Assembly: GCF_004376175.1 (NCBI RefSeq)
Contig: NZ_SNUY01000061.1
Location: 1 to 26,535 of the forward strand
From: Halalkalibacterium halodurans
Lineage (GTDB): Bacteria; Bacillota; Bacilli; Bacillales; Bacillaceae_D
DNA length: 26,535 bases
Direction: 5' to 3'
Below the pieces are notes generated by a model. That model saw only the letters and a list, made by a program, of their open reading frames with translations, was not told the DNA's origin and searched no databases. The number at the start of each line of letters is the position of its first letter. The stretch's first letter is position 1. Of the stretch, positions 1,381-26,358 are shown in pieces. The position numbers and the translations under genes were made by a program.

Positions 1381-2397
1381 TCAGCCACCGATATGTGACA
1401 TTTCAACTTTTTTCCGTTTGTTCGTATGGCTCGTTCGCTTGAGCGAGTATTGATCGTCACGCACATGCCAAATCGCGGCAAGCTTTTGCTGGATCGCCTC
1501 ATCCGATGCGCCGCTGCGAAGAAGCTCGCGGAAGTCGTGACCTTTTGTCGCAAAGAGGCATGTGTAAAGCTTTCCTTCTACAGATAACCTTGCTCGGTTA
1601 CACGTTGTGCAAAAGGCGTCGGTTACTGACGAAATGACGCCAATTTCCACCGAAGTTCCCTTATAGCGATACCGCGTCGCAACCTCGCTTGGATAATCCG
1701 ACTCGACCGGCTCAAGCGGATGGACTTTATGAATCATCTCGAGAATGTCTCGCTTTGCGACGACATCATCCATGCGCCAGCCATTGGAGTTTCCTACGTC
1801 CATGTATTCAATAAACCGGAGCGTGTACCCTTTTTCCTTAAAAAATTGTGCCATCGGCAATACATCCTGGTCGTTCACTCCTTTTTGCACGACCATATTT
1901 ACTTTTACGCCAAGCCCCGCCTCCTTTGCGGCCTCCATTCCGTCAAGAACTGGCTTCGTCCCGATCCCTCGACCATTGATCTTGCCGAAGCGCTCATCAT
2001 CCAAGCTGTCTAAGCTGACAGTCACTCGTTTCAGCCCTGCTTTTTTCAGCTTGTCAGCCATTTTCGGTAGCAGCGTGCCATTCGTTGTCATCGCTACATC
2101 CTCAATGCCTGTTGTTGCGGTTAGCATGGAAATGAGCTGATCTACATCTTTCCGCATGAGCGGCTCACCGCCGGTAATGCGGATTTTTTTTATCGGGGAG
2201 GTTTGATGAAATAAATGAACGAGCCGGTTGGTTTCCTCAAAACTAAGAATCTCAGTCTTTTTTAAAAAAGGATAGTCAGGTCCAAAAATGTCGGCGGGCA
2301 TACAATAGTGACAGCGAAAGTTACAACGATCAGTAACAGAGATTCGCAGATCTCGGAACGGGCGATTAAGTCGGTCGGTCATCGGTTGAGTTCCCAT
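1381..2397 (-). CDS. moaA: GTP 3',8-cyclase MoaA (molybdenum cofactor biosynthesis, radical SAM)
   Basis: 338-aa ORF with the radical-SAM CNFRCHYC (Cx3Cx2C) cluster near the N-terminus, a second C-terminal Cys cluster (CTTCNRARL...YTC) and a terminal GG. The ATG is 9 nt after GGAGG and 1 nt after the fdhD stop. Confidence 0.95.
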
Positions 2398-2398
2398 G

Positions 2399-3211
2399 TC
2401 ATTGAACCTCCTTTTTTGGTGTAAGAATCCGCTCTGGAACGGTGTAAATATTCATCCGTCCGTCACGGATAAAGCCAGCGGTCGTGACATTTAATTCCTC
2501 AGCCATCGTCAATGCCAGCTCGGTTGGTGCCGATTTGGACAGCATGATGCCGACGCCAATTTTAGCTGCCTTTAATAGGACTTCCGACGATATCCGGCCG
2601 GAAAACAACAGCACTTTATCGCGGACAGGTACGCCGTTCATTAGACAGTATCCGTACAGTTTATCTAACGCATTATGGCGACCAATATCGGTGCGGGAGA
2701 TGAGCATTTGTTCTGGGGTTGCAAGGGCGGCGTTATGGACGCCTCCTGTTTGCTGAAAAATGACGCTTTGCTCCTGAAGGGCTTCCATCAAGCGAAAGCA
2801 TTGTTCAGGCGTAATCGTCGTCCGGCTCGTGGACGTCTTAGCCGTTTTTGCGTCATTGTGAAAATAAAAGGATTGTCGGCTCTTTCCGCAGCAAGAACCG
2901 ATCATTCGTTTGGAGTAAAATTGCCATTCGGTTGGCAGCTCTTTCGTGAGAGAAACATAGGCAAACCCACGCGATTCATCGATGGAAAGGGAGGCGACAT
3001 CTTGTTTGTAAAATCGAATGAGTCCCTCTGAGCCTAAAAACCCAATCACCATTTCTTCTAGATCGGCCTGCGTACAGACCATCGTCGCAAACTCACGATC
3101 ATTTACATAGATCGTCAGCGGGTATTCACGTGCCACCTGATCCTCTCGATGTACAACGTTTTGATCGGTAATTGAAATAATTTTTCGCGTTGCTTGCATA
3201 GGGTTTGTCAA
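2399..3211 (-). CDS. fdhD: formate dehydrogenase accessory sulfurtransferase FdhD
   Basis: 270-aa ORF of FdhD/NarQ family appearance: cysteine loop [16 protein letters not shown] and GRHNALDKL motifs. The track start is TTG at 3211, 4 nt after GGTGAGG. An alternative start is ATG at 3199. Confidence 0.9.
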
Positions 3212-3277: not shown

Positions 3278-3381
3278 GTCTACTTCCAAGAGTAAATAAA
3301 AAAAGCTGGACGGGACATCGGTTTTTCCTTCCTCTGTTCATCTGGTACGTGAGTGACCCTATTCATCAACTAAAAAAGCTC

Positions 3382-3411
3382 TTGTCAATGTATCCGTTTT
3401 CATGATAGAAT
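3382..3411 (+). promoter_or_regulatory. candidate sigma-A promoter for the OFA transporter gene
   Basis: TTGTCA (3382-3387), an 18-nt spacer and TG-a-TAGAAT (3406-3411), which is an extended -10. The -10 sits inside the inverted repeat CCGTTTT-N12-AAAACGG (3394-3419). Confidence 0.5.
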
Positions 3412-3419
3412 CAAAACGG

Positions 3420-3651
3420 ATTTATTCACAATTTTGCAACATTTTGCTCGAGAAGGATGGACACGGGATAGCGAACCTGTCGCCGGTTATCCTTTCAGCA
3501 AATGGACATCAAACGCTCCGTTTGGTTCAGCAGCAGCGTACCTGTTTGTTGGCTAAACCGTCGTCTTCTTCGCACGTTATGTGCATTTGAAGCTCGGCGG
3601 TTTTTTGTTTTAATTGTAACCGAAAAAATGATGTTGGGGAGTGAATAATCG
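3420..3651 (+). promoter_or_regulatory. long structured 5' leader containing an intrinsic terminator (attenuator or riboswitch-like, unclassified)
   Basis: About 230 nt lie between the predicted TSS and the ATG at 3652. Elements seen: a hairpin at 3452-3495 with loop GAUAGCGAA; boxes AGCGAACCTGT (3470-3480) and AGCGTACCTGT (3535-3545); GGCTAA (3551-3556); and a terminator at 3555-3610. Confidence 0.5.
3555..3610 (+). terminator. intrinsic terminator inside the transporter leader
   Basis: AAACCGTCG (3555-3563) pairs with CGGCGGTTT (3595-3603, one G-U pair). Internal pairs are CTTC/GAAG and GCAC/GTGC. TTTTTTGTTTT follows. Confidence 0.55.
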
Positions 3652-4911
3652 ATGAAAACGACAAAAAACCGTTGGCTCATTGCGCTTGCGGCAGTTGGAA
3701 TCCACATTTCGATCGGCTCGGTCTATGCTTGGAGCGTCTTTACGAATCCATTGATTGAGCAATTCGGTTGGGGTTTGGGGGAAGTGTCCTTAACATTTAG
3801 TATCGCCATTGCGTTCCTCGGCGTTTCCGCAGCGTTTATGGGGCACTTCGTCGAAAAACATGGACCGCGAAAATCAGGGATGGTGGCTGCCTCGTTTTTC
3901 GGACTCGGTACCTTAGGCGCAGGGCTCGCCGTTTCTCTTGAATCTCTTTGGCTGCTCTATTTTTCCTATGGGGTCCTTGGCGGATTTGGACTCGGTGTTG
4001 GCTACATAACCCCTGTCTCTACCCTCGTCAAATGGTTTCCCGACCGGCGCGGCTTAGCGACAGGACTGGCGATCATGGGCTTTGGCTTCGCCTCCCTCGT
4101 GTTTAGCCCGATCATGAATGCGTTCATTACATCTGTCGGTATTGCTGCAACCTTTTTTATCCTTGGTGGCCTTTACATGATCATTATGTTTACCGCTGCT
4201 CTATACTTAGAGCCACCCCCTCAGGGCTGGGTACCTGCTGGTTTTATAGAAGCAAAAACGGAAATTGGTCGTTTGCAAAAGCAGGATCTCTCACAACTAA
4301 CGGCTAATGAAGCGGTAAAGACGAAACGGTTCTGGTTCCTATGGACGATGCTTTTCATTAACGTCACATGTGGGATCGCGATTTTAGCCGTTGCCTCGCC
4401 AATGGCGCAAGAGATTACGGGCATGACAGCAGCAACAGCGGCAACAATGGTTGGACTTATGGGGCTTTTTAATGGACTGGGACGAATCGGCTGGGCGTCC
4501 ATTTCTGATTACATTGGGCGACCGAACGTATACACTGCCTTTTTCCTTATTCAAATTGTCGCCTTCGTGATGCTCCCTTCGATCACGCACGTGCTATTGT
4601 TTCAAGTGGTGCTCTTTTTCATCATGACTTGTTACGGCGGTGGGTTTGCGTCGATTCCTGCTTACATTGGGGATCTGTTTGGTACGAAGCAGCTCGGTGC
4701 GATTCATGGCTACATTTTGACAGCCTGGGCATTAGCGGGACTCGTTGGACCTATGATTGCTTCGTATATTCGCGAGACGACGAATAGCTATGCAGGCACC
4801 CTTTACATTTTTACCGGCATGTTTATAGTCGCCCTTGCCGTTTCCCTTTTTATTCGTGTGGACATTCGTCAGTTGCGCGCACAAAGCAACAAACAGGGAC
4901 TCGTGAGCTGA
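3652..4911 (+). CDS. MFS transporter, oxalate/formate antiporter (OFA) family
   Basis: 419-aa ORF, hydrophobic throughout with about 12 spans. The N-terminal NRWLIALAAVGIHISIGSVYAWSVF and the WFPDRRGLATG loop are typical of OFA-family MFS proteins. RBS GGGGAG lies upstream of the ATG. Confidence 0.85.
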   Translation: MKTTKNRWLIALAAVGIHISIGSVYAWSVFTNPLIEQFGWGLGEVSLTFSIAIAFLGVSAAFMGHFVEKHGPRKSGMVAASFFGLGTLGAGLAVSLESLWLLYFSYGVLGGFGLGVGYITPVSTLVKWFPDRRGLATGLAIMGFGFASLVFSPIMNAFITSVGIAATFFILGGLYMIIMFTAALYLEPPPQGWVPAGFIEAKTEIGRLQKQDLSQLTANEAVKTKRFWFLWTMLFINVTCGIAILAVASPMAQEITGMTAATAATMVGLMGLFNGLGRIGWASISDYIGRPNVYTAFFLIQIVAFVMLPSITHVLLFQVVLFFIMTCYGGGFASIPAYIGDLFGTKQLGAIHGYILTAWALAGLVGPMIASYIRETTNSYAGTLYIFTGMFIVALAVSLFIRVDIRQLRAQSNKQGLVS

Positions 4912-4941
4912 TTGACAGAAAATGAAGGCGCAAGCTATGAT
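4912..4941 (+). promoter_or_regulatory. candidate sigma-A promoter for the DUF2294 gene
   Basis: TTGACA (4912-4917) starts directly after the transporter stop codon. An 18-nt spacer precedes TATGAT (4936-4941). There is no terminator between the transporter gene and this promoter. Confidence 0.5.
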
Positions 4942-4968
4942 GAAGGAGAAGAATACTAGAGGAAACGA

Positions 4969-5358
4969 TTGGGTCATAAAGGGCTGAAAAACATGAATAA
5001 ATACGAAGCTGAATTTAGTAATCTCGTACGTGCTTTCCGAAAAAAGCATATGGGCAAAGGCCCAAGTAAGATTAACACTACCTTTTGTAAGAACTGGGCA
5101 ATCTGTGAAATGGAAGGCAACCTCTCACCTGTAGAAAAATTTATTGCCAGCGCCGATGAAGGAAAACAAATGCTAAGAGCCGCTCGAACCGAGATGGTGA
5201 AAGAAATGTATCGAAAAAACCGCCCAGTGGAAATGGAAAGCTTCCTGGGCACCGAGCTTGTCGATCTTTTTGTTGACATTGATATTGAACGAGATTTCGG
5301 CATGTCTGTGTTTGTGTTTGCTGATAACATTGAAGAAAAATTTTCCAAAAAGCGTTGA
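4969..5358 (+). CDS. DUF2294 (MpsC-like) family protein
   Basis: ORF-track ORF of 129 aa. The core EAEFSNLVRAFRKKHMGKGPSKINT...LSPVEKFIA...GKQMLRAARTEMV...RP.ME matches my memory of the DUF2294 pattern (E.EI.N.I..F.KE..GRGP..I.T...L.P.EK.L...G...V...R). The start is either TTG at 4969 (AGAGGA 5 nt upstream) or ATG at 4993. Confidence 0.7.
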   Translation: MGHKGLKNMNKYEAEFSNLVRAFRKKHMGKGPSKINTTFCKNWAICEMEGNLSPVEKFIASADEGKQMLRAARTEMVKEMYRKNRPVEMESFLGTELVDLFVDIDIERDFGMSVFVFADNIEEKFSKKR

Positions 5359-5578
5359 GCCTGCGTCAATAGCGCTCCTGTTTGCGTCAGGATCGACCGC
5401 TTAACAGCTTAACTGGATTTTTGTTGTTGGTACTTGATAGCGCTCCTGTCAAAGGCTAACCGCTGCATATTCGACTTGAAGCTTCCTTCAGCGAATACCA
5501 GCGGTTTTTTTTCACTATCGAACACTTGCTTCACTTACGGTCGTAACCTTTACGAGCCATAAGAAAGGATGATCATGA
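5359..5578 (+). promoter_or_regulatory. intercistronic leader with an intrinsic terminator upstream of the molybdoenzyme gene (attenuator-like, unclassified)
   Basis: Boxes AGCGCTCCTGT occur at 5371-5381 and 5439-5449, GGCTAA at 5454-5459, and a terminator at 5458-5512. About 65 nt then follow before the ATG at 5579. Confidence 0.5.
5458..5512 (+). terminator. intrinsic terminator between the DUF2294 gene and the YdeP-family gene
   Basis: AACCGCTG (5458-5465) pairs with CAGCGGTT (5499-5506). Inner pairs are TATTCG/CGAATA and TGAAG/CTTCA. A run of eight T follows (5505-5512). Confidence 0.6.
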
Positions 5579-7927
5579 ATGGGAAAGACGAAACATGCTG
5601 GCCCGATGAAACTAGATAAAAAATGGGACCCGTCATTATGGGCGGGGAAAGTGCCCCTCGGCTTAGGAAAAGTGAAACCAAAACATATTCGCGATACGTT
5701 AAAAGTCGCACTCGAAAATCGCGACAATCTTGGCTATGCCTACCGTATTTTAACACAGGGGGTCTGCGACGGCTGCGCCCTTGGCGTTTCCGGCTTGCAA
5801 GACCAAACGCTCGCGGGACCACACCTTTGCACCACACGGTTAAATGTATTACGGTTGAACACCATGCCGGCCATCGATCCGAAATGGTTGGACGATGTGG
5901 AAGAGCTTAGGAAGCTTGATAGTACGGAGCTACGCAAGCTCGGCCGGATTCCGTATCCACTGTCGCGAAAGCCGGGAGAAAAAAGATTTACCCGCATTAG
6001 CTGGGACGATGCCTTGAACCGTATCGCCGCAAAAATAAAAGCGATTGACCCAAAACAGCTTGCTTTCTACTTAACGGCAAGAGGAATTACAAATGAAGTG
6101 TATTACACAGCGGCCAAGGTGGCTCGTTTTCTAGGAACGAACAACATCGATAATGCGTCAAGAATTTGTCATTCTCCAAGTAAAACGGCGTTAAAACGTT
6201 CTCTCGGTATCGGTGCGTCAAGCTGTAATTATCAAGATTGGATCGGTACCGACGTCCTCGTCTTTTGGGGCTCTGTTGCCGCCAATAACCAGCCAGTATC
6301 AACAAAATATATGTATGCCGCGAAAAAGGCAGGGACGAAGATCATTATGATTAACCCGTACCGTGAGCCGGCGATGGAAAACTATTGGATTCCTTCGATT
6401 CCTGAAAGCGCCCTGTTCGGCACACAAATAGTTGATGATGTATTTCAAGTAAACATTGGCGGCGATATTGCGTTCATGAACGGGGTGATGAAGCATTGGT
6501 TTGAAATGGAGAAAGAGCGGCCAGGATCTGCGATCGACCACGCGTTTATTGCGAACCATACGAACGGCTTTGCAGAGCTTAAGGAGCATGTGGAGCAATT
6601 AAACTGGAACGACATCGTGAAGTCTGCCGGACTTTCAAAAGAACGGATCCTCGAGTTTGCCAAGCTTCTAGCCAACTCACGATCGGGTGTGTTTATTTGG
6701 AGCATGGGACTTACCCAGCACCGATTTGCGACCGATAACATTTCCCAAGTCGCCAATTTAGCTCTTTTGCAAGGGTTTATCGGGCGAAAGCATTGCGGTG
6801 TGATGCCGATTCGCGGCCATAGTGGTGTGCAAGGCTCAGGAGAAATGGGCGCTGATCCATTTGTCTTGCCTGGCGGTGATTTTGAACCAGAACATAAAAA
6901 GCGGATCGAAGCGATCTGGGGATTCCACATTCCAGATTGGCAAGGGGACACGGTCGGGCAAATGTTAGAGAATGTCTTGCTTCCAGACGATCATGAACGA
7001 AAGGTGCGCCTTTTTTATACGAGTGGTGGTAACTTCCTTGAAACGATGCCGGACCCAGCGTTTATCCAACGCGTGTTGGAAAACGTCGAGCTTCGCGTCC
7101 ATCAAGACATCATTTTTAACACGTCCACTCTCGTAGATGCAAAAGAAGAAGTGATCGTTCTTCCAGCGATGACGCGCTATGAACAGCCAGGTGGAGGAAC
7201 GTCGACGAGCACGGAGCGAATGGTCTACTTCAGTCCGGAAATTAAAGGCCCGCGAATCGAAGAAGCACGGGCAGAATGGGACATTTACATCGAGCTCGCC
7301 AAACGAGTCGATCCAGAACGGGCTCATTTAATCGATTTTCAAACTGCCCAACAAATCCGTGATGAAATTGCCGTAGCTAATCCGAATTATGACGGAATCC
7401 AACACCTGAAAAATCGCGGAGATGTCTTTCAATGGGGAGGTGCATGGCTTTGTGAAGGGGGTGTTTGCCCAACACCTGATGGACGTGGAAACTTACTCCC
7501 TATCGACCTACCAGAGTTCCGCCGCACCGAGGGTCACTTTTACGTGACAAGTCGGCGAGGCAAACAGTTTAACTCGATGGTGTACAGTGAAACGGACCCA
7601 TTTAACGGAGCCGATCGTTATGACGTGATCATGAACGAAACGGACGGGAAGAAATTAAATATTCGTAACGGTGAATCGATTGTCGTCTACAACCAATATG
7701 GTACGTTCCAAGGACGCGCCTGCTTTGGCGACACCCAGACAGGGAACATTGCGGTTTATTGGCCTGAAGGAAACATGCTTCTTCCGAAAGGTGTTTACGA
7801 AACGCATGCGAAAATCCCTGAGTACAATACGACGGTGATCGTTGAAAAAGCCGAGAGCTTCCATGCGCAAAAAGACAGACGCTACCTCGAAAAACGGGTC
7901 GAGGAGCTGGAGCTTGAAGCGAACTGA
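5579..7927 (+). CDS. FdhF/YdeP-family molybdopterin oxidoreductase (formate dehydrogenase alpha-like, Cys type)
   Basis: 782-aa ORF with the size and N-terminal layout of the YdeP/Fdh-alpha-like family. It has an N-terminal Cys group (CDGCALG...C) and a SRICHSPS motif aligning with the SeCys/Cys-His active site of formate dehydrogenases (Cys197-His198, nt 6167-6172). There is no in-frame TGA. AAAGGA lies upstream of the ATG. Confidence 0.88.
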   Translation: MGKTKHAGPMKLDKKWDPSLWAGKVPLGLGKVKPKHIRDTLKVALENRDNLGYAYRILTQGVCDGCALGVSGLQDQTLAGPHLCTTRLNVLRLNTMPAIDPKWLDDVEELRKLDSTELRKLGRIPYPLSRKPGEKRFTRISWDDALNRIAAKIKAIDPKQLAFYLTARGITNEVYYTAAKVARFLGTNNIDNASRICHSPSKTALKRSLGIGASSCNYQDWIGTDVLVFWGSVAANNQPVSTKYMYAAKKAGTKIIMINPYREPAMENYWIPSIPESALFGTQIVDDVFQVNIGGDIAFMNGVMKHWFEMEKERPGSAIDHAFIANHTNGFAELKEHVEQLNWNDIVKSAGLSKERILEFAKLLANSRSGVFIWSMGLTQHRFATDNISQVANLALLQGFIGRKHCGVMPIRGHSGVQGSGEMGADPFVLPGGDFEPEHKKRIEAIWGFHIPDWQGDTVGQMLENVLLPDDHERKVRLFYTSGGNFLETMPDPAFIQRVLENVELRVHQDIIFNTSTLVDAKEEVIVLPAMTRYEQPGGGTSTSTERMVYFSPEIKGPRIEEARAEWDIYIELAKRVDPERAHLIDFQTAQQIRDEIAVANPNYDGIQHLKNRGDVFQWGGAWLCEGGVCPTPDGRGNLLPIDLPEFRRTEGHFYVTSRRGKQFNSMVYSETDPFNGADRYDVIMNETDGKKLNIRNGESIVVYNQYGTFQGRACFGDTQTGNIAVYWPEGNMLLPKGVYETHAKIPEYNTTVIVEKAESFHAQKDRRYLEKRVEELELEAN

Positions 7928-7958
7928 GAAAAACCGCCTCGATTTGAGGCGGTTTTCG
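7928..7958. terminator. bidirectional intrinsic terminator shared by the convergent molybdoenzyme and methyltransferase genes
   Basis: AAAAACCGCCTC (7929-7940), loop GATTT, GAGGCGGTTTT (7946-7956). A-runs and T-runs flank both sides. The hairpin exactly fills the gap between the stop codons at 7927 and 7959. Confidence 0.75.
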
Positions 7959-8621
7959 TTATTTGTTCCATGACGCAACCGTCACGACCGCTAAGCCGTC
8001 AAGGACGAGCTCATGGGTAACCACCCATGCTCCGTGTTTCTTAAAGAAATGCGTAAGCTGTTCAGCCGTATAACGATGACGACGTGTCGAGACATTGGAC
8101 CATTGCAATAGCGTTTTTTCTTCAAAGCCTGTGATCCCGCTCTTCTTGCAGTAAGCTTTTGCAGCGGCATGATTCATCTTGTTAGTCGGGTTTAGCATTC
8201 CGATCACACCTGCCCCATTTAGCACCCGAATCATTTCCTTCATCCCTCGCTCGGGCTCTGGCAGAAGGAACATGACACAAGTAGAGAGGCAAACGTCAAA
8301 CGATTCATCGGCAAACGGCAGATCATACGCGTCCCCTTGGACGACCGTCAGCCTTCCGCATTGCTTGTGTTCATGCAATCGCTCTTCTGTCGCCAATACC
8401 ATTTGTTTTGACAAATCCACTCCTGCTAAGTGGGCTGCCTCATGTACTCCTCTTGCCAACAAGCGCCCCGTTCCGCACCCTACATCTAATACGGCACGAT
8501 TCGCCCAGGATCCCGTCCCTTTTTTTAACCGATCGTGGACTGGACGAAGCCAGCTCGCCTGCGCCATCCCGTCAAAAAAAGAGACGAGTGGATCAAACTC
8601 TTCACCCGTCATTTTTCGCAT
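7959..8621 (-). CDS. class I SAM-dependent methyltransferase
   Basis: Motif I is VLDVGCGTGRL, followed by GVDLS and an acidic DAYDLPF segment (Methyltransf_11/25-like). The track ORF begins at TTG 8678. I prefer ATG 8621 (MRKMTGEEF), which is 7 nt after GGGGAGG. Confidence 0.8.
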   Translation of the reverse strand: MRKMTGEEFDPLVSFFDGMAQASWLRPVHDRLKKGTGSWANRAVLDVGCGTGRLLARGVHEAAHLAGVDLSKQMVLATEERLHEHKQCGRLTVVQGDAYDLPFADESFDVCLSTCVMFLLPEPERGMKEMIRVLNGAGVIGMLNPTNKMNHAAAKAYCKKSGITGFEEKTLLQWSNVSTRRHRYTAEQLTHFFKKHGAWVVTHELVLDGLAVVTVASWNK

Positions 8622-19815: not shown

Positions 19816-19842
19816 TGTTTTCTCCTCCTTGGTTATGCAAAC

Positions 19843-19955
19843 AAAAAACCTCCTTGCCCATGACAAAGAGGTTACACTACTCCTGTAAAAAAGCACACAG
19901 GTGCCCAAGAAAGAGTGTACCTCTTAACAGCCTCACGGGACTGATTTAAAGAGGT
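19843..19955 (-). promoter_or_regulatory. pyr attenuator 2 (PyrR binding loop plus terminator) between pyrR and pyrP
   Basis: Read on the minus strand. CCTCTTTaaatcAGTCccgtgaGGCTgttAAGAGG (19919-19955) starts 3 nt after the pyrR stop. Terminator AACCTCTTTGtcatgggCAAGGAGGTT plus TTTTTGTTTG lies at 19843-19872. Confidence 0.8.
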
Positions 19956-19957
19956 GG

Positions 19958-20548
<591 letters not shown>

Positions 20549-20555
20549 TTAAAGT

Positions 20556-20669
20556 ATAAAAACCCTTCTGTCCAAAGGGCAGAAGGGTATACGTTACCTA
20601 AAGTCATGAAAACGACGAGCGGCGTTTTCGTGATTCCTTCTTAGCCTCACTGGACTAACATTAAAGGAG
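20556..20669 (-). promoter_or_regulatory. pyr attenuator 1 (PyrR binding loop plus terminator) in the pyrR leader
   Basis: Read on the minus strand. CCTTTaatgttAGTCcagtgaGGCTaaGAAGG (20633-20669) resembles the PyrR box consensus ARUCCAGAGAGGYU. Terminator ACCCTTCTGccctttggaCAGAAGGGT plus TTTTTA lies at 20556-20588. Confidence 0.8.
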
Positions 20670-20718
20670 CTTATTCAATTCTCGCTTGGTGCAATTATGA
20701 CAAAATACGACGACCGTG

Positions 20719-21636
20719 TCAACGGTTATTTTGCAATTGCCTGATGAGTTTTTTCATCTCTTCTGGCATTTCTACTTTAAAGCGCATAAATTCACCGGTA
20801 CGAGGATGCTCAAACCCTAATTTTTGTGCATGAAGCGCTTGTCCATCAATTGATAATGTTTTTTTCGGTCCATATTTTGGATCACCTGCAAGGGGAAAGC
20901 CAATGTATTTAAAATGGACCCTAATTTGGTGGGTTCTCCCTGTTTCCAGTTGACATTCAACAAAGGTAAAATCACCAAATCGCTCAAGGACGGTAAAATG
21001 GGTTACTGCATCGCGGCTGTTTTCTTCTGTCACTGTCATGCTTTGTCGATCTACCTTATCCCGGCCGATTGGCGCATCAATCGTCCCATGATCATGGGGA
21101 ATGTTGCCGTGAACGATTGCTTGGTACACCCGTTCGGTCGTTTTTGCTTTTAATTGGTTCACTAACGATTCATGGGCTCTGTCATTTTTTGCGATCATTA
21201 ACAGCCCTGATGTATCTTTATCGATCCGGTGTACAATCCCTGGACGAACCACGCCATTGATCGACGAAAGATCGTTACAATGATACATGAGGGCATTGAC
21301 AAGCGTTCCTGTCGTGTGTCCAGGTGCCGGATGAACGACCATCCCTCGCGGCTTATTCACAACCGCTACGTCCTCATCTTCATAAATGATCTCAATCGGA
21401 ATATTTTCAGGAACCACTTCTAATACTTCTGGTTCTGGCACAAAAAGCTCTAGCGTATCGCCAGTTTCCACCTTGTAGTTCGATTTGATCGTTCGACCAT
21501 TAATTAACACATGGCCATCTTTAATCCACTGTTGTACTTGTGTTCTTGACCATTCTTCCCCTTGAGCAGTTAAAAACTTATCGATCCGCTCCCCTTGTTG
21601 CTGTTCCGAAATGGTCCACGTCAATTGCTCACTCAT
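20719..21636 (-). CDS. rluD: 23S rRNA pseudouridine synthase, RluA/RluD family (YlyB position)
   Basis: 305 aa with an N-terminal S4-like domain, the catalytic [11 protein letters not shown] motif and [13 protein letters not shown] overlap with the lspA stop. Confidence 0.9.
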
Positions 21637-22917: not shown

Positions 22918-23020
22918 GCACGCCTCCCTGCGGCATCGGCTGTATTAGCACGTCCTGTGCGTCCACTGCCTATAGCGCCACGTCCTGTGGCATCGGCTGT
23001 ATTAGCACGTCCTGTGCGTC
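22918..23020. repeat. intergenic tandem repeat (57-bp period, perfect 32-bp core in two copies, built from GCACGTCCTGTGC mini-palindromes)
   Basis: GGCATCGGCTGTATTAGCACGTCCTGTGCGTC occurs at 22932-22963 and again at 22989-23020. The submotif (G/C)CACGTCCTGTG occurs at 22948, 22978 and 23005, with a degenerate copy at 22918. Confidence 0.85.
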
Positions 23021-23244: not shown

Positions 23245-26010
23245 TTATTTTGTTACATAATACGTCGCCACTGTCTCCGCACAATCCGCACAAAGGGTCG
23301 GATGCTCGTTGTTTGTACCGACCGTTGGGCTCACAACCCAACAACGTTCACACGTTTCGCCTGCTGCTTTTTCAACAACGATCGCTAAATCGCCATATGA
23401 CTCGGCTTCTTTTGGCGCATCCGCGACAGAGCCAGCCACTTTTACAGCGGACACGATGAACAACTTATCTAACGGCCCAAGCTCTTCTAAAAGCTGGCGG
23501 ACGTCACCATCAGCGTAAAGCGTAATGGCCGCCGTTAAAGATTTGCCGATCACCTTTTCATTTCGCGCATTTTCAAGTGCCTTTAGAACATCGTCACGAA
23601 CGTTGATAAACGCATCCCATTTTTGTTTTAATTCACTCATGTCCCCAAGCTCGATCGGTTCTGGCATATCCGTCAGCTGGACACTCTCCTCTTCAACACC
23701 TGGGATATGTTTCCACACTTCATCCGCCGTATGGGGGATAATTGGGGACAAGAGTTTGGCCAACGCTACGAGCACATCATACATGACCGTTTGCGTAGCT
23801 CTTCGATCCGGATGGTCAGCATGCTTCACATAGAGGGTATCTTTCGCAATATCCATATAGAACGAGCTTAACTCAATCGTACAGAAGTTGTGGAGCTCGT
23901 GATATACGGTTGAGAACTGGTACTCGTCGTATGCCTTTTTCACACGATTGATGACATCGTTTAATTTTGCAAGCATGTAGCGATCAAGTCCGTTTAACTG
24001 ATCAATGGCCACACGGTGCGTTGCTGGATGAAAATCGTGTAAGTTTCCAAGCAGGAAACGATAGGTGTTGCGAATTTTCCGATATACTTCCGATACTTGC
24101 TTCAAAATTTTATCCGATACGCGTACATCTGCTTGATAGTCGACAGATGCGACCCAAAGGCGTAAAATATCGGCTCCAAGCTGTTTCATTACATCATTCG
24201 GAATGACGACATTTCCGAGTGATTTACTCATTTTCTTTCCTTCACCATCAAGGGTAAAGCCATGGCTTAACACCCCTTTGTAAGGTGCTTTTCCTGTGAT
24301 CGCTACACTTGTTGATAACGATGAGTTGAACCAACCGCGATACTGGTCTGAGCCTTCTAAATAAAGATCCGCAGGTCGATCTAACTCCTCACGCTCTACA
24401 AGCACCCCTTGATGGCTAGAGCCAGAATCGAACCAAACGTCCATAATATCCATTTCTCGTGTGAATTGACCATTCGGACTTGATTCATGGGTAAATCCTT
24501 CTGGAAGTAAATCTTTCGTCTCCCATTCAAACCAAACATTTGATCCGTGCTTTCTAAATAGCTCTGATACGTGGTTGATCGTTTCATCCGTAATGATCGG
24601 TTCTCCATTCTCTCCATAGAAAATCGGAATCGGCACACCCCATACGCGTTGACGTGAAATACACCAATCACCGCGGTCACGTACCATGTTGTAGAGGCGC
24701 GTTTCCCCCCACTCTGGAACCCACTTCACTTCCTGAATCGCTCTCAACAATTCGTCACGGAAGTTTTCAATCGATGCGAACCACTGAGCCGTCGCCCGGT
24801 AAATGACCGGCTTTTTTGTCCGCCAGTCATGGGCATAAGAGTGGGTGATAAACGTTAGCTTTAGGAGCGCACCGCACTCATCTAACTTTTGCGTGATCGG
24901 TTTGTTCGCTTCGTCATAAAATAATCCTTCAAAGCCAGGTGCTTCAGCGGTCATGTACCCTTTGTCATCAACTGGACATAACACGTCTAAACCGTACTTT
25001 TGGCCGACAATGTAGTCTTCTTCCCCGTGTCCAGGCGCTGTATGGACGCATCCTGTACCGGCATCTAACGTGACATGATCCCCTAAAACAACCAAGGAAT
25101 CTCGGCCGTAAATCGGATGTTCAGCGACGACGTATTCTAAATCTACCCCTTTGATCGTTCGCAAGATTTCTGGATTTTCCCATTCAAGAGCGGATTCGAG
25201 TGTTTCCACAAGTCCTGACGCGACGACGTATTTTTCGCCTTTCACAGCGACAACGCTATATTCAAGTTCAGGATGAACGGCAATTCCTAAGTTTGCTGGG
25301 ATCGTCCACGGAGTTGTCGTCCAGATGACGATTTTTTCATCTTGTTGTAATACGTTCTTTCCATCTTTCACTGGGAAAGCTACGTAAATCGACGGTGAGC
25401 GTTTGTCATGATATTCGATTTCCGCTTCCGCTAACGCTGATTCTGACGATGGTGACCAGTAGACAGGCTTTTTTCCTTTATAAATGTAGCCTTTTTTCGC
25501 CATCTCCCCGAACACTTTTACTTGCTGGGCTTCAAAGCCTTTATCTAAAGTGACGTAAGGGTTCCACCAGTCCCCGCGCACACCTAATCGCATAAATTGT
25601 TCACGTTGGCGGTCAATTTGCTTCCGTGCAAATTCTTCACAAAGCTTACGGAACTCGGCGACACTCATCGATTTGCGATCAACACCAGATTTCGTTAACG
25701 CTTGCTCAATCGGCAGGCCGTGGGTGTCCCACCCTGGAACATACGGAGCATGAAAACCTGCCATGGACTTATAGCGAACAATCATATCCTTTAAAACCTT
25801 ATTCAGTGCATGCCCCATATGGATGTCACCATTGGCATAAGGTGGTCCATCATGAAGCACAAACAGTGGACGACCTTTCGTCCGTGCTTGCACCTTCTCA
25901 TAAATATTCATATCTTTCCATTCTTCCTGCATTTGCGGCTCACGGTTTGGCAAATTTCCCCGCATCGGGAAATCCGTTTTTGGCATGAGCAATGTTTCTT
26001 TAAAATCCAT
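23245..26010 (-). CDS. ileS: isoleucine--tRNA ligase
   Basis: Class I signatures [11 protein letters not shown] and KMSKS, plus C-terminal zinc-type CERCW...CADC. I prefer ATG 26010 ([21 protein letters not shown]), 7 nt after GGAGG, giving 921 aa. The track start at 26016 is only 1 nt from the RBS. Confidence 0.97.
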
Positions 26011-26016
26011 TTCCAT

Positions 26017-26358
26017 TCCTCCTAATGATTTGCAACTCCATTACAGCCAGCCTTGTGGCGGAAATGATTGTTTTCAATGGAACAAATAAAAACCTCCCCA
26101 TCCCCATTAGGGACGAGAAGGTATTCCCGCGGTACCACCCTAGTGAACAAACGACATTCTTTGCTTGTTCCCTCGTGTCATTGTTAACAGGCATGACCTG
26201 TTGCAGCCTACTGAATCAACGATCGTTCGGTGCAAAAACTAAAGGGTGATTTTCCACATTCACGTTCCATCAGGCTTCCACCATCCCTGACTCGCTTTTG
26301 GAAGGGGTGACGTGTACTGTCCCTCTCATCGTCCATTGTATGTTCGCTTTTTTAATTA
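26017..26358 (-). promoter_or_regulatory. T-box riboswitch leader, isoleucine-specific
   Basis: Read on the minus strand: stem I start GAUGAGAGGGACAGUA; specifier loop GGAAAAUCACCC with the AUC Ile codon (26250..26248); T-box sequence AGGGUGGUACCGCGGG (26141..26126); terminator CCUUCUCGUCCC/GGGGAUGGGGAGG plus UUUUUAUUU (26084-26121). Confidence 0.88.

Follow-up and report, generated by a model that had tools for sequence, protein, structure and literature searches.

In Firmicutes, the known proteins that act on leader RNAs are HutP, TRAP, PyrR, GlpP, the BglG family and the ANTAR proteins. In the hutP-hut and glcT-ptsG loci, a small regulator gene is combined with a regulated intrinsic terminator and the catabolic or other target genes. 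A similar layout is present in a 26,535-nucleotide stretch of Halalkalibacterium halodurans DNA (contig NZ_SNUY01000061.1, positions 1 to 26,535; hereafter the window), where a gene for a DUF2294/MpsC-family protein lies between a transporter gene and a gene for a putative formate dehydrogenase, and where the latter two are each preceded by a leader with an intrinsic terminator (leader 1 and leader 2, respectively). Here, we report that both leaders carry the same conserved RNA element, which is very probably a structured antiterminator/terminator switch and forms a new class within the known kind of terminator/antiterminator leaders controlled by a trans-acting effector. On balance, we favor the view that these are protein-dependent antitermination leaders with DUF2294 as the RNA binder and formate as the likely signal.

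The preliminary description of this DNA had pointed to four copies of an 11-nt box in the two leaders. All four are found on the plus strand, AGCGAACCTGT at 3470-3480 and AGCGTACCTGT at 3535-3545 in leader 1 and AGCGCTCCTGT at both 5371-5381 and 5439-5449 in leader 2, and the reported distances of 65 and 68 nt between box starts are correct. The general form AGCGNNCCTGT has five exact matches in the window as compared to 0.21 ± 0.41 expected from 100 dinucleotide shuffles, none of which reached five. The fifth copy (21302-21312, plus strand) lies inside the minus-strand open reading frame (ORF) 20719-21636 and was taken as a chance occurrence because it lacks the P1 helix described below, a terminator context and a covariance-model match. 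For comparison, 80 genome loci were collected with the DUF2294 protein as query, most of which keep the gene order transporter-DUF2294-molybdoenzyme. In these first 80 loci the strict box AGCGNNCCTGT has 76 matches on the plus and three on the minus strand, and it comes back at two syntenic sites, one lying about 150-200 nt before the transporter gene and the other close behind the DUF2294 gene. The box spacing in 65 homologous first leaders is 60-75 nt with a mode of 62, and the consensus can be refined to AGCGNN(N)CCTGY, the last position of the terminator-proximal copy being more often C than T. In most species the second leader has a single box; two are present in the window, in Halalkalibacterium ligniniphilum and in Brevibacillus. 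The sequence between the boxes had been described as not conserved, which is true when the two leaders of the window are compared with each other but not for the first leader across species, where GAAAGCGATTACTGTTGG is kept.

The boxes are real but they are not linear motifs as first described. Each is the apex of a conserved RNA hairpin with the stem ..RUAG/CUGY.. and the loop CGNN(N)C, such that the 11 nt comprise the end of the 5' stem arm, a loop of 5-6 nt and the start of the 3' arm. This was derived from an alignment of 56 first leaders (A1), for which a consensus fold was calculated with RNAalifold, and from an alignment of 89 proximal units of both leader types (A3). On the 89 mixed units RNAalifold gave the inner hairpin alone; the outer helix, P1, was imposed by hand and then tested by pair counts. 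In the core unit, P1 (5'-GUUGG(U)/(A)CUAAC-3') surrounds a hairpin, from which it is separated by a small internal loop. The hairpin has the arms ..GRUAG and CUGYY.. and the loop CGNN(N)C, and it is a module of which a leader contains one or two copies. The proximal box tops a 5-7-bp stem nested in the 6-bp helix P1 (GUUGGU/ACUAAC), and the distal box tops an 8-bp stem with one bulged base.

In leader 1 the distal domain (3443-3502, plus strand, as are all leader elements) folds as a long irregular hairpin with the first box at its tip (-25.5 kcal/mol, z = -3.8), and the same long-stem shape, with lower-stem sequences differing between genera, was seen in all 14 other species inspected. Its upper part, the distal box hairpin defined by RNAalifold on the 56 leaders (3464-3485), has 8 bp, a bulged G3482 and the loop CGAAC (3472-3476) and holds the box 3470-3480. 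The proximal unit, the putative antiterminator, spans 3520-3558 and holds the box 3535-3545 together with GGCTAA. It consists of P1 (3520-3526 with 3552-3558, GUUUGGU/GCUAAAC) and an inner hairpin (3528-3536 with 3542-3551) with the loop CGUAC (3537-3541), and was identified by folding and by a match (3510-3573, 31.5 bits, E = 9e-5) to R1, a covariance model of the proximal unit that was built from main-clade sequences only. In leader 2 the distal hairpin (5360-5391, -11.8 kcal/mol) begins 2 nt after the DUF2294 stop codon and carries the box 5371-5381 with the loop CGCUC (5373-5377); equivalents with different lower stems are present in Brevibacillus, and most genera have none. The proximal unit of leader 2 (5423-5463, -13.2 kcal/mol, z = -2.3), again the putative antiterminator, holds the box 5439-5449 and GGCTAA. 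Here P1 is formed by 5426-5431 with 5455-5460 (GUUGGU/GCUAAC), extended by 5423-5424 with 5462-5463, and the inner hairpin by 5434-5440 with 5446-5452 around the loop CGCUC (5441-5445); the R1 match covers 5413-5475 (45.8 bits, E = 1e-8).

Covariation supports both helices in over 80 Bacillaceae, Brevibacillus and Paenibacillus genomes and in 14 metagenome contigs. In A1, 97.6% of the cells are paired while slid controls reach at most 52.5%, and 85 cells carry double changes as compared to 20.8 ± 6.3 in shuffles (none of 500 reached the observed value). A3 shows the same two helices, with 89% of cells paired and 56 double changes against 18.8. In the distal box hairpin 97.8% of the cells are paired and double changes occur at five of the eight pairs, one of which is G-C in 25 and A-U in 22 leaders; P1 covaries likewise (G-C 36 and A-U 18 at one pair, G-C 39 and A-U 8 at another). 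Wobble pairs (U.G or G.U) are kept in 50, 48 and 45 of the 56 leaders, indicating that the element acts as RNA and in the sense strand only. The segment that links the two leader 1 hairpins (A1 columns 130-137, about 3508-3516 in the window, consensus GAAAGCGATTACT) is strongly conserved in Bacillaceae and has diverged in the window and in Brevibacillus. Two pairings were tried for this GCGAUUA linker, with UAACCGU, where P1 joins the terminator (82% paired), and with the terminator arm (64% paired), and showed a persistent A.C mismatch and weak covariation.

The proximal unit overlaps the terminator. As previously noted, in both leaders the second box is followed by GGCTAA and then by a long hairpin with a U-tract. 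By folding, the intrinsic terminators extend over 3555-3607 in leader 1 (AAACCGUCG...CGGCGGUUU followed by a U-tract) and 5458-5512 in leader 2 (AACCGCUG...CAGCGGUU followed by U8). GGCTAA had been regarded as the opening of the terminator 5' arm; it does run 3-6 nt into that arm but is also the 3' strand of the covarying helix P1. Thus, the P1 strand 3552-3558 of leader 1 has AAAC (3555-3558) in common with the terminator arm that starts at 3555, and P1 of leader 2 (5455-5460 plus 5462-5463) has AAC(CGC) in common with the arm that starts at 5458. Among the homologues, 76 of 89 units have a terminator 5' arm that starts within P1, by 1-4 nt. Since the 3' strand of P1 continues into the terminator arm, P1 and the full terminator are mutually exclusive, and P1 qualifies as an antiterminator. 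P1 and its hairpin (-9 to -16 kcal/mol) are far weaker than the terminator (median stem energy -24 kcal/mol), so that termination would be the default and something would have to stabilize P1 for read-through. A strong hairpin with a U-tract in a 5' or intercistronic leader and a mutually exclusive upstream helix with covariation are the features by which an intrinsic-terminator attenuator is recognized, and both are present here. The DUF2294 stop codon abuts P1 at many loci, and translation-coupled attenuation was considered but set aside because leader 1 has the same P1-hairpin unit without an upstream ORF in the transcript.

R1 gave about 130 matches in 1.37 Mb of collected sequence, all on the plus strand. 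They lie upstream of the transporter gene (or of the DUF2294 gene where there is no transporter) or just after the DUF2294 gene, and at no other place. The element is thus found, with covariation, in front of orthologous genes of over 80 genomes, which rules against a local duplication and bears out the suspicion, raised from the window alone, that the two leaders share a conserved RNA element abutting an expression platform. Independently of the protein, metagenome contigs were scanned with a two-hairpin DNA pattern. Of 17 places found, 14 were true and all of these lie in the arrangement fdhD <-> leader-MFS-DUF2294-FdhF/YdeP. The remaining three were chance matches, two of them in tRNA genes (L086 4448-4480 and L089 4300-4335), where GGTAGCGCACCTGC is a D-arm/anticodon-stem segment; this makes tRNA genes the main source of false positives in simple pattern scans for the proximal box. 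The idea that the element mimics tRNA was dropped as its flanks form no D-arm. In some Fredinandcohnia/Bacillus loci (L006 8376-8540, L012 8379-8610, L013 8379-8535), an insertion of 150-250 nt starting with ...GTTCAAAAAGGAGGATGGATAGGACCGAGAGTTTCAAGGCGGCGCAGC... separates the DUF2294 stop codon from the second leader and looks like a small repeated or mobile element.

We then asked which factor might operate the switch. In the loci examined, every copy of the element had a DUF2294 gene directly before it or elsewhere in its operon. Conversely, it was not found in six lineages that have an orthologous FdhF/YdeP enzyme (77-82% identity) but lack DUF2294, namely Bacillus paralicheniformis, B. methanolicus, Thermaerobacillus, Anoxybacillus, Peribacillus deserti and B. 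pakistanensis. B. paralicheniformis keeps the divergent arrangement of fdhD and transporter-enzyme genes, the promoter and the 5' element AGTTCAAAAAATATACAC, and is devoid of DUF2294 and of both hairpin/terminator leaders, even though leader 1 is located 1.3 kb from the DUF2294 gene.

The relationship extends to more distant relatives. The DUF2294 protein of the window belongs to a tight clade (at least 75% identity), and its nearest relatives outside this clade are about 50% identical. In all five loci of this sister clade that were looked up, the DUF2294 gene is found 140-220 nt upstream of a formate dehydrogenase gene of another type. In Kyrpidia this is an FdhF/YjgC-type enzyme (TIGR01591, 853 bits), and in Staphylococcus capitis, Mammaliicoccus sciuri, Peribacillus muralis and Paenibacillus faecalis an NAD-dependent, cofactor-free formate dehydrogenase (NF005750, 544 and 477 bits for the two that were scanned). 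All five gaps fold as P1 (GGUUGG/CUAACC-like), a small internal loop and a hairpin, with P1 running into the next hairpin. The sister inner stem, GGUAC...GUGCU, is the same as GGUAG...CUGCU of the main clade with the apical pair flipped, and its loop has 3-7 nt of unrelated sequence. A clear terminator overlaps P1 in three of the five loci, and the best R1 match falls into the gap in three of five (E = 5e-4, 4e-3 and 0.02). DUF2294 has its own promoter in the sister loci, and no element lies upstream of it. Common to all versions are UUGG/CUAA in P1 and GGUA/UGCU in the hairpin, helical features that include wobble pairs.

The genes behind the element point to formate. The transporter gene of the window (3652-4911, plus strand, Pfam MFS_1) encodes a monocarboxylate or oxalate-formate-family transporter, with 467 bits for NCBIfam NF049980 (SfMCT; cut-off 320) and a score below the cut-off of TIGR00890 (OFA family). 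The gene behind leader 2 (5579-7927, plus strand) encodes an FdhF/YdeP-family molybdopterin oxidoreductase and putative formate dehydrogenase, as identified by Pfam and by TIGR01701 (1034 bits, cut-off 582). The link to formate that had been suspected from these two genes was strengthened by the sister loci, since three formate dehydrogenase classes that are unrelated to one another have the element, or a variant close to it, in front of their genes. Together with the monocarboxylate/formate transporters, these make formate the only common denominator of the genes behind the element, for which reason it is the most likely signal.

From these findings we propose the following mechanism. By default, the more stable terminator would win, and transcription would stop before the transporter gene at leader 1 and before the formate dehydrogenase gene at leader 2. 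A trans-acting factor that holds the hairpin and P1 would withhold the base of the terminator, allowing RNA polymerase to read through. In leader 1 the second copy of the hairpin, placed on a long stem about 62 nt upstream, may offer the factor an additional binding site and thereby raise affinity or cooperativity. The most likely factor would be DUF2294, encoded between the two leaders and probably made at a basal level from an internal promoter of its own, and its most likely signal would be formate. The preliminary description had left open whether the element is ligand-sensing or bound by a protein. The latter is favored by the conserved bases, which are helical and include G.U wobbles, by the modular hairpin and by the co-occurrence with DUF2294, which that description had named only among the neighboring genes, whereas the loop of 5 or 6 nt has free middle bases and the junction and internal-loop sequences differ between leader types. 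Such a pattern fits recognition by a protein better than a small-molecule pocket, and we consider it probable that the switch is protein-dependent rather than a riboswitch. Whether DUF2294 is the regulatory protein, and thus the founder of a new family of ligand-responsive RNA-binding antiterminators, we regard as an even call.

The DUF2294 gene (4993-5358, plus strand) has an ORF that is open from 4969 and a conserved start, MNKYEAEF, at 4993. Its product matches PF10057 (1.8e-33, 115.4 bits, cut-off 23) and is 80-91% identical across genera. Basic residues conserved in both clades (R13, R16, K17, K22 and R65, and K70 in at least 90% of the sequences) lie around the motifs FRKxxxGKGP and ARTxxxK and could contact RNA or bind an anion. 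A phmmer search against PDB sequences found nothing. Designed proteins and TRAPPC3/bet3 (TM about 0.4) came up as the best fold matches of the AlphaFold model (pLDDT 89) and were not relied on.

Several points weigh against the proposed role of DUF2294 and against parts of the switch model. Homology does not support RNA binding by DUF2294, as its predicted fold resembles neither a solved RNA-binding protein nor another solved structure: a Foldseek search against the PDB gave no match with E <= 0.001, the best TM score being 0.46 with E > 0.01. The overlap between P1 and the terminator amounts to only 3-6 nt, and two of the sister loci, those of the staphylococcal type, have no convincing terminator downstream. 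The conserved GCGAUUA linker might be part of an extended antiterminator or a protein contact. Common ancestry of a single operon type might explain part of the co-occurrence of DUF2294 and the element. In 13 loci of the Cytobacillus firmus type, a stand-alone main-clade DUF2294 gene (about 87% identical) is located next to fdhD, and neither R1 nor a relaxed regular expression found the element within ±8 kb; DUF2294 either has its target elsewhere in these genomes or the protein has another role. Finally, R1 gave no match in the hairpin and terminator leader of Cytobacillus horneckiae (L111), which represents a third DUF2294 clade with the order formate dehydrogenase <-> DUF2294-fdhD ... FNT channel. 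In that leader (4660-4790, minus strand), which belongs to a divergent YjgC-type formate dehydrogenase gene, a hairpin closed by UGGU...ACUA is immediately followed by a very strong terminator (z = -6.7), and it may be a further variant of the system.

Some features of these loci are recorded here for completeness. In the C. firmus-type loci (L041, L047, L048, L052, L053, L055-L058, L070, L072, L074 and L038, around position 8000), DUF2294 is monocistronic and divergent from fdhD, has its own promoter and terminator, and is found near a YjgC-type formate dehydrogenase and DUF1641. In C. horneckiae (L111 6165-6483) a gap of 320 nt separates DUF2294-fdhD from the FNT formate channel gene.

The foremost alternative is that the RNA itself is a riboswitch, in which the hairpin/P1 unit or both hairpins bind formate or a related small molecule and thereby stabilize P1, with DUF2294 merely co-regulated. 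The competition between P1 and the terminator is indeed the architecture of an ON-riboswitch, the downstream genes have formate as their sole shared denominator, the arrangement of the paired hairpins, whose loops contain a self-complementary CG, is reminiscent of guanidine-II (mini-ykkC), and sequence and fold searches lend DUF2294 no support as an RNA binder. Yet the conserved nucleotides are paired, the loop length, mid-loop bases and internal loops vary, and the sister loops are unrelated, which leaves little from which to build a selective pocket. Dimerization through loop-loop contacts cannot be general because most second leaders have a single hairpin. The constant company of DUF2294 and the absence of the element from the six DUF2294-less operons likewise speak against an RNA that acts on its own. 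Hence we regard a riboswitch as unlikely, and its more specific form, a formate-sensing leader RNA with the P1/hairpin unit as minimal aptamer and DUF2294 as an accessory only, is disfavored by the evidence and a little less probable still.

Another possibility is that some other trans-acting factor, either an RNA-binding protein or an RNA, is encoded outside the operon and binds the hairpins, with DUF2294 as an accessory or formate-binding protein. The stand-alone DUF2294 genes beside fdhD in the C. firmus-type loci, the direct succession of DUF2294 and fdhD in the third clade and the lack of a recognizable RNA-binding fold would all agree with this. A role in enzyme maturation, on the other hand, does not suit the NAD-dependent formate dehydrogenases, which lack a molybdenum cofactor and are preceded by DUF2294 and the element in four loci. 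Moreover, the RNA variant shifts with the DUF2294 clade (apical pair G-C versus C-G, loop conserved versus free), as is expected of co-evolving partners, and, DUF2294 aside, there is no conserved gene that goes with the element in every context. We therefore judge an external factor improbable.

How the element relates to the described systems was examined with Pfam scans of the eight genes flanking the leaders, with Rfam and by comparison of structures. The hut system of Bacillus subtilis resembles it in gene layout, in the duplicated RNA sites and in a regulator that is expected to need a small-molecule ligand. In contrast to HutP, whose structure is in the PDB, DUF2294 resembles no solved structure in either sequence or fold, and HutP was absent from its top 50 Foldseek PDB matches. 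The HutP site, two sets of three single-stranded NAG triplets with 4-base spacing, differs by description from the helix-in-helix unit found here, and in our case a second regulated leader lies upstream of the regulator gene. Ribonucleic antiterminator (RAT) sites, the targets of BglG, SacY, LicT and GlcT, are imperfect hairpins of about 30-40 nt with internal loops, the 3' side of which overlaps the terminator 5' arm by a few nt as in our 76 of 89 units; the protein stabilizes the weaker antiterminator, as proposed here, and the regulator gene is often just upstream (glcT-ptsG). However, no CAT/PRD protein is encoded by the eight flanking genes, DUF2294 is the operon's only protein without an assigned function, the sequence consensus is by description unrelated, leader 1 has a distant second hairpin, and the signal is not linked to the phosphotransferase system (PTS). 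Likewise, the targets of the ANTAR proteins EutV, NasR and AmiR consist of two similar hairpins with conserved loop positions, of which the terminator-proximal one competes with the terminator. These hairpins are adjacent and have hexaloops with A1 and G4, whereas the element described here has CGNNC or CGNNNC loops on sequence-conserved stems, 60-75 nt apart and often only one hairpin, and no ANTAR protein is present among the eight flanking genes. Guanidine-II RNAs share the two small hairpins with a conserved loop CG, the variable linker and the position upstream of an expression platform; they differ in that the element gave no Rfam match, its loops are not ACGR, its stem sequence is conserved and a single hairpin is the commoner form in leader 2. 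PyrR sites, too, are protein-bound leader hairpins that control a terminator and are repeated within one operon, but binding of PyrR favors termination via an anti-antiterminator, and RF00515 matches only at 19840-19956 and 20555-20671 on the minus strand, in the pyr operon, and not in the formate leaders.

In agreement with the preliminary description, which could not match the leaders to any known RNA class, cmscan with Rfam 15 at gathering thresholds gave matches elsewhere in the window and none in the leaders for any family, PyrR (RF00515), T-box (RF00230), Moco riboswitch and mini-ykkC included, a search of region 3300-5650 at E <= 10 yielded two chance snoRNA-like matches only, and no family was found in the gaps of the sister-clade loci. 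A literature search that covered DUF2294, YbcI, PF10057, ydeP riboswitch candidates and formate riboswitches or antiterminators brought up no description of the element, and the fhsA motif (PMC11109978) is unrelated. Even though the window has PyrR sites and a T-box elsewhere and the general logic resembles that of RAT and ANTAR systems, it is scarcely credible that the element belongs to a known class (RAT, T-box, Moco riboswitch, PyrR site or ANTAR target), is a DNA operator or arose as a local repeat or by chance, in view of the negative Rfam results, loops and hairpin distances unlike those of ANTAR targets, the absence of ANTAR, PRD/CAT, PyrR and HutP proteins among the eight flanking genes, the compensatory changes and G.U pairs, which speak against a DNA operator, and the conservation in more than 80 genomes, which speaks against chance and local duplication. 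By these comparisons the element would act like RAT and ANTAR antiterminators and is arranged like hutP but belongs to none of the three, and it was therefore filed as a new class.

If the proposal is true, Firmicutes would gain a new protein-RNA antitermination pair, and one cassette would precede three unrelated formate dehydrogenases as well as formate/monocarboxylate transporters. The formate-responsive regulator known to us is the enterobacterial FhlA; formate sensing in Bacillaceae, Brevibacillus, Paenibacillus and staphylococci could then be tested directly. The compactness of the cassette (a protein of about 120 amino acids and an RNA of about 40 nt) might make it a formate-responsive expression switch for C1 biotechnology. 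Should the RNA be a riboswitch instead, it would represent a new ligand class, the first for a simple carboxylate anion. In the former case a molecular function would be assigned to DUF2294/MpsC, a Pfam family without an assigned role. The name MpsC stems from an operon to which the protein does not functionally belong, as MpsC is dispensable for MpsAB and deletion of mpsC has no phenotype (PMC6689103).

Further signals were noted around the leaders. A sigma-A-type promoter-like site of the operon (3382-3411, plus strand; TTGTCA, 18 nt, TG-n-TAGAAT) scored 10/12 in a consensus scan and has an extended -10 TG; its position agrees with promoters upstream of the conserved leader at other loci. 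Right after the transporter stop codon begins a second promoter-like site (4912-4941, plus strand; TTGACA, 18 nt, TATGAT; 11/12), which, going by its sequence, is probably the promoter of DUF2294, and TGnTAnAAT-type extended -10-like motifs are found in the transporter-DUF2294 gap of several other lineages. A perfect 9-bp inverted repeat, ATCCGTTTT-N12-AAAACGGAT (3392-3400 and 3413-3421), straddles the -10 hexamer of the operon promoter and could be an operator for a DNA-binding regulator; it was not noticed in the other loci read and therefore may be specific to this genome. Just 3' of the promoter, alignment A1 revealed a conserved 5' leader element, TTCACAATTTTGCAACATTT (3425-3444, plus strand; consensus AGTTCAYAAANNTGTAACATTT), the 3' part of which forms the base of the long distal hairpin. 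A similar element is retained in the hairpin-less, DUF2294-less leaders of B. paralicheniformis and B. methanolicus (L082 4560-4590; L083 5890-5915). The persistence of AGTTCAYAAANNTGTAACATTT without the hairpins suggests a second, independent control element of the operon, either a DNA operator or a 5'-end signal.

The operon ends with a terminator 3' of the FdhF/YdeP gene (7930-7956, plus strand, terminator scan). Upstream and outside the RNA element, Pfam identified the divergent fdhD (2399-3211, minus strand), which has the same orientation in the metagenome and genome loci, and moaA (1381-2397, minus strand), a conserved neighbor that forms with it the moaA-fdhD block 1381..3211. In addition to the PyrR sites, Rfam gathering-score matches in the window comprise a T-box leader (26106-26338, minus strand, 107 bits) upstream of a 923-amino-acid ORF (23245-26016) and a Bacillaceae-1 small RNA (sRNA) at 22954-23018 on the plus strand.

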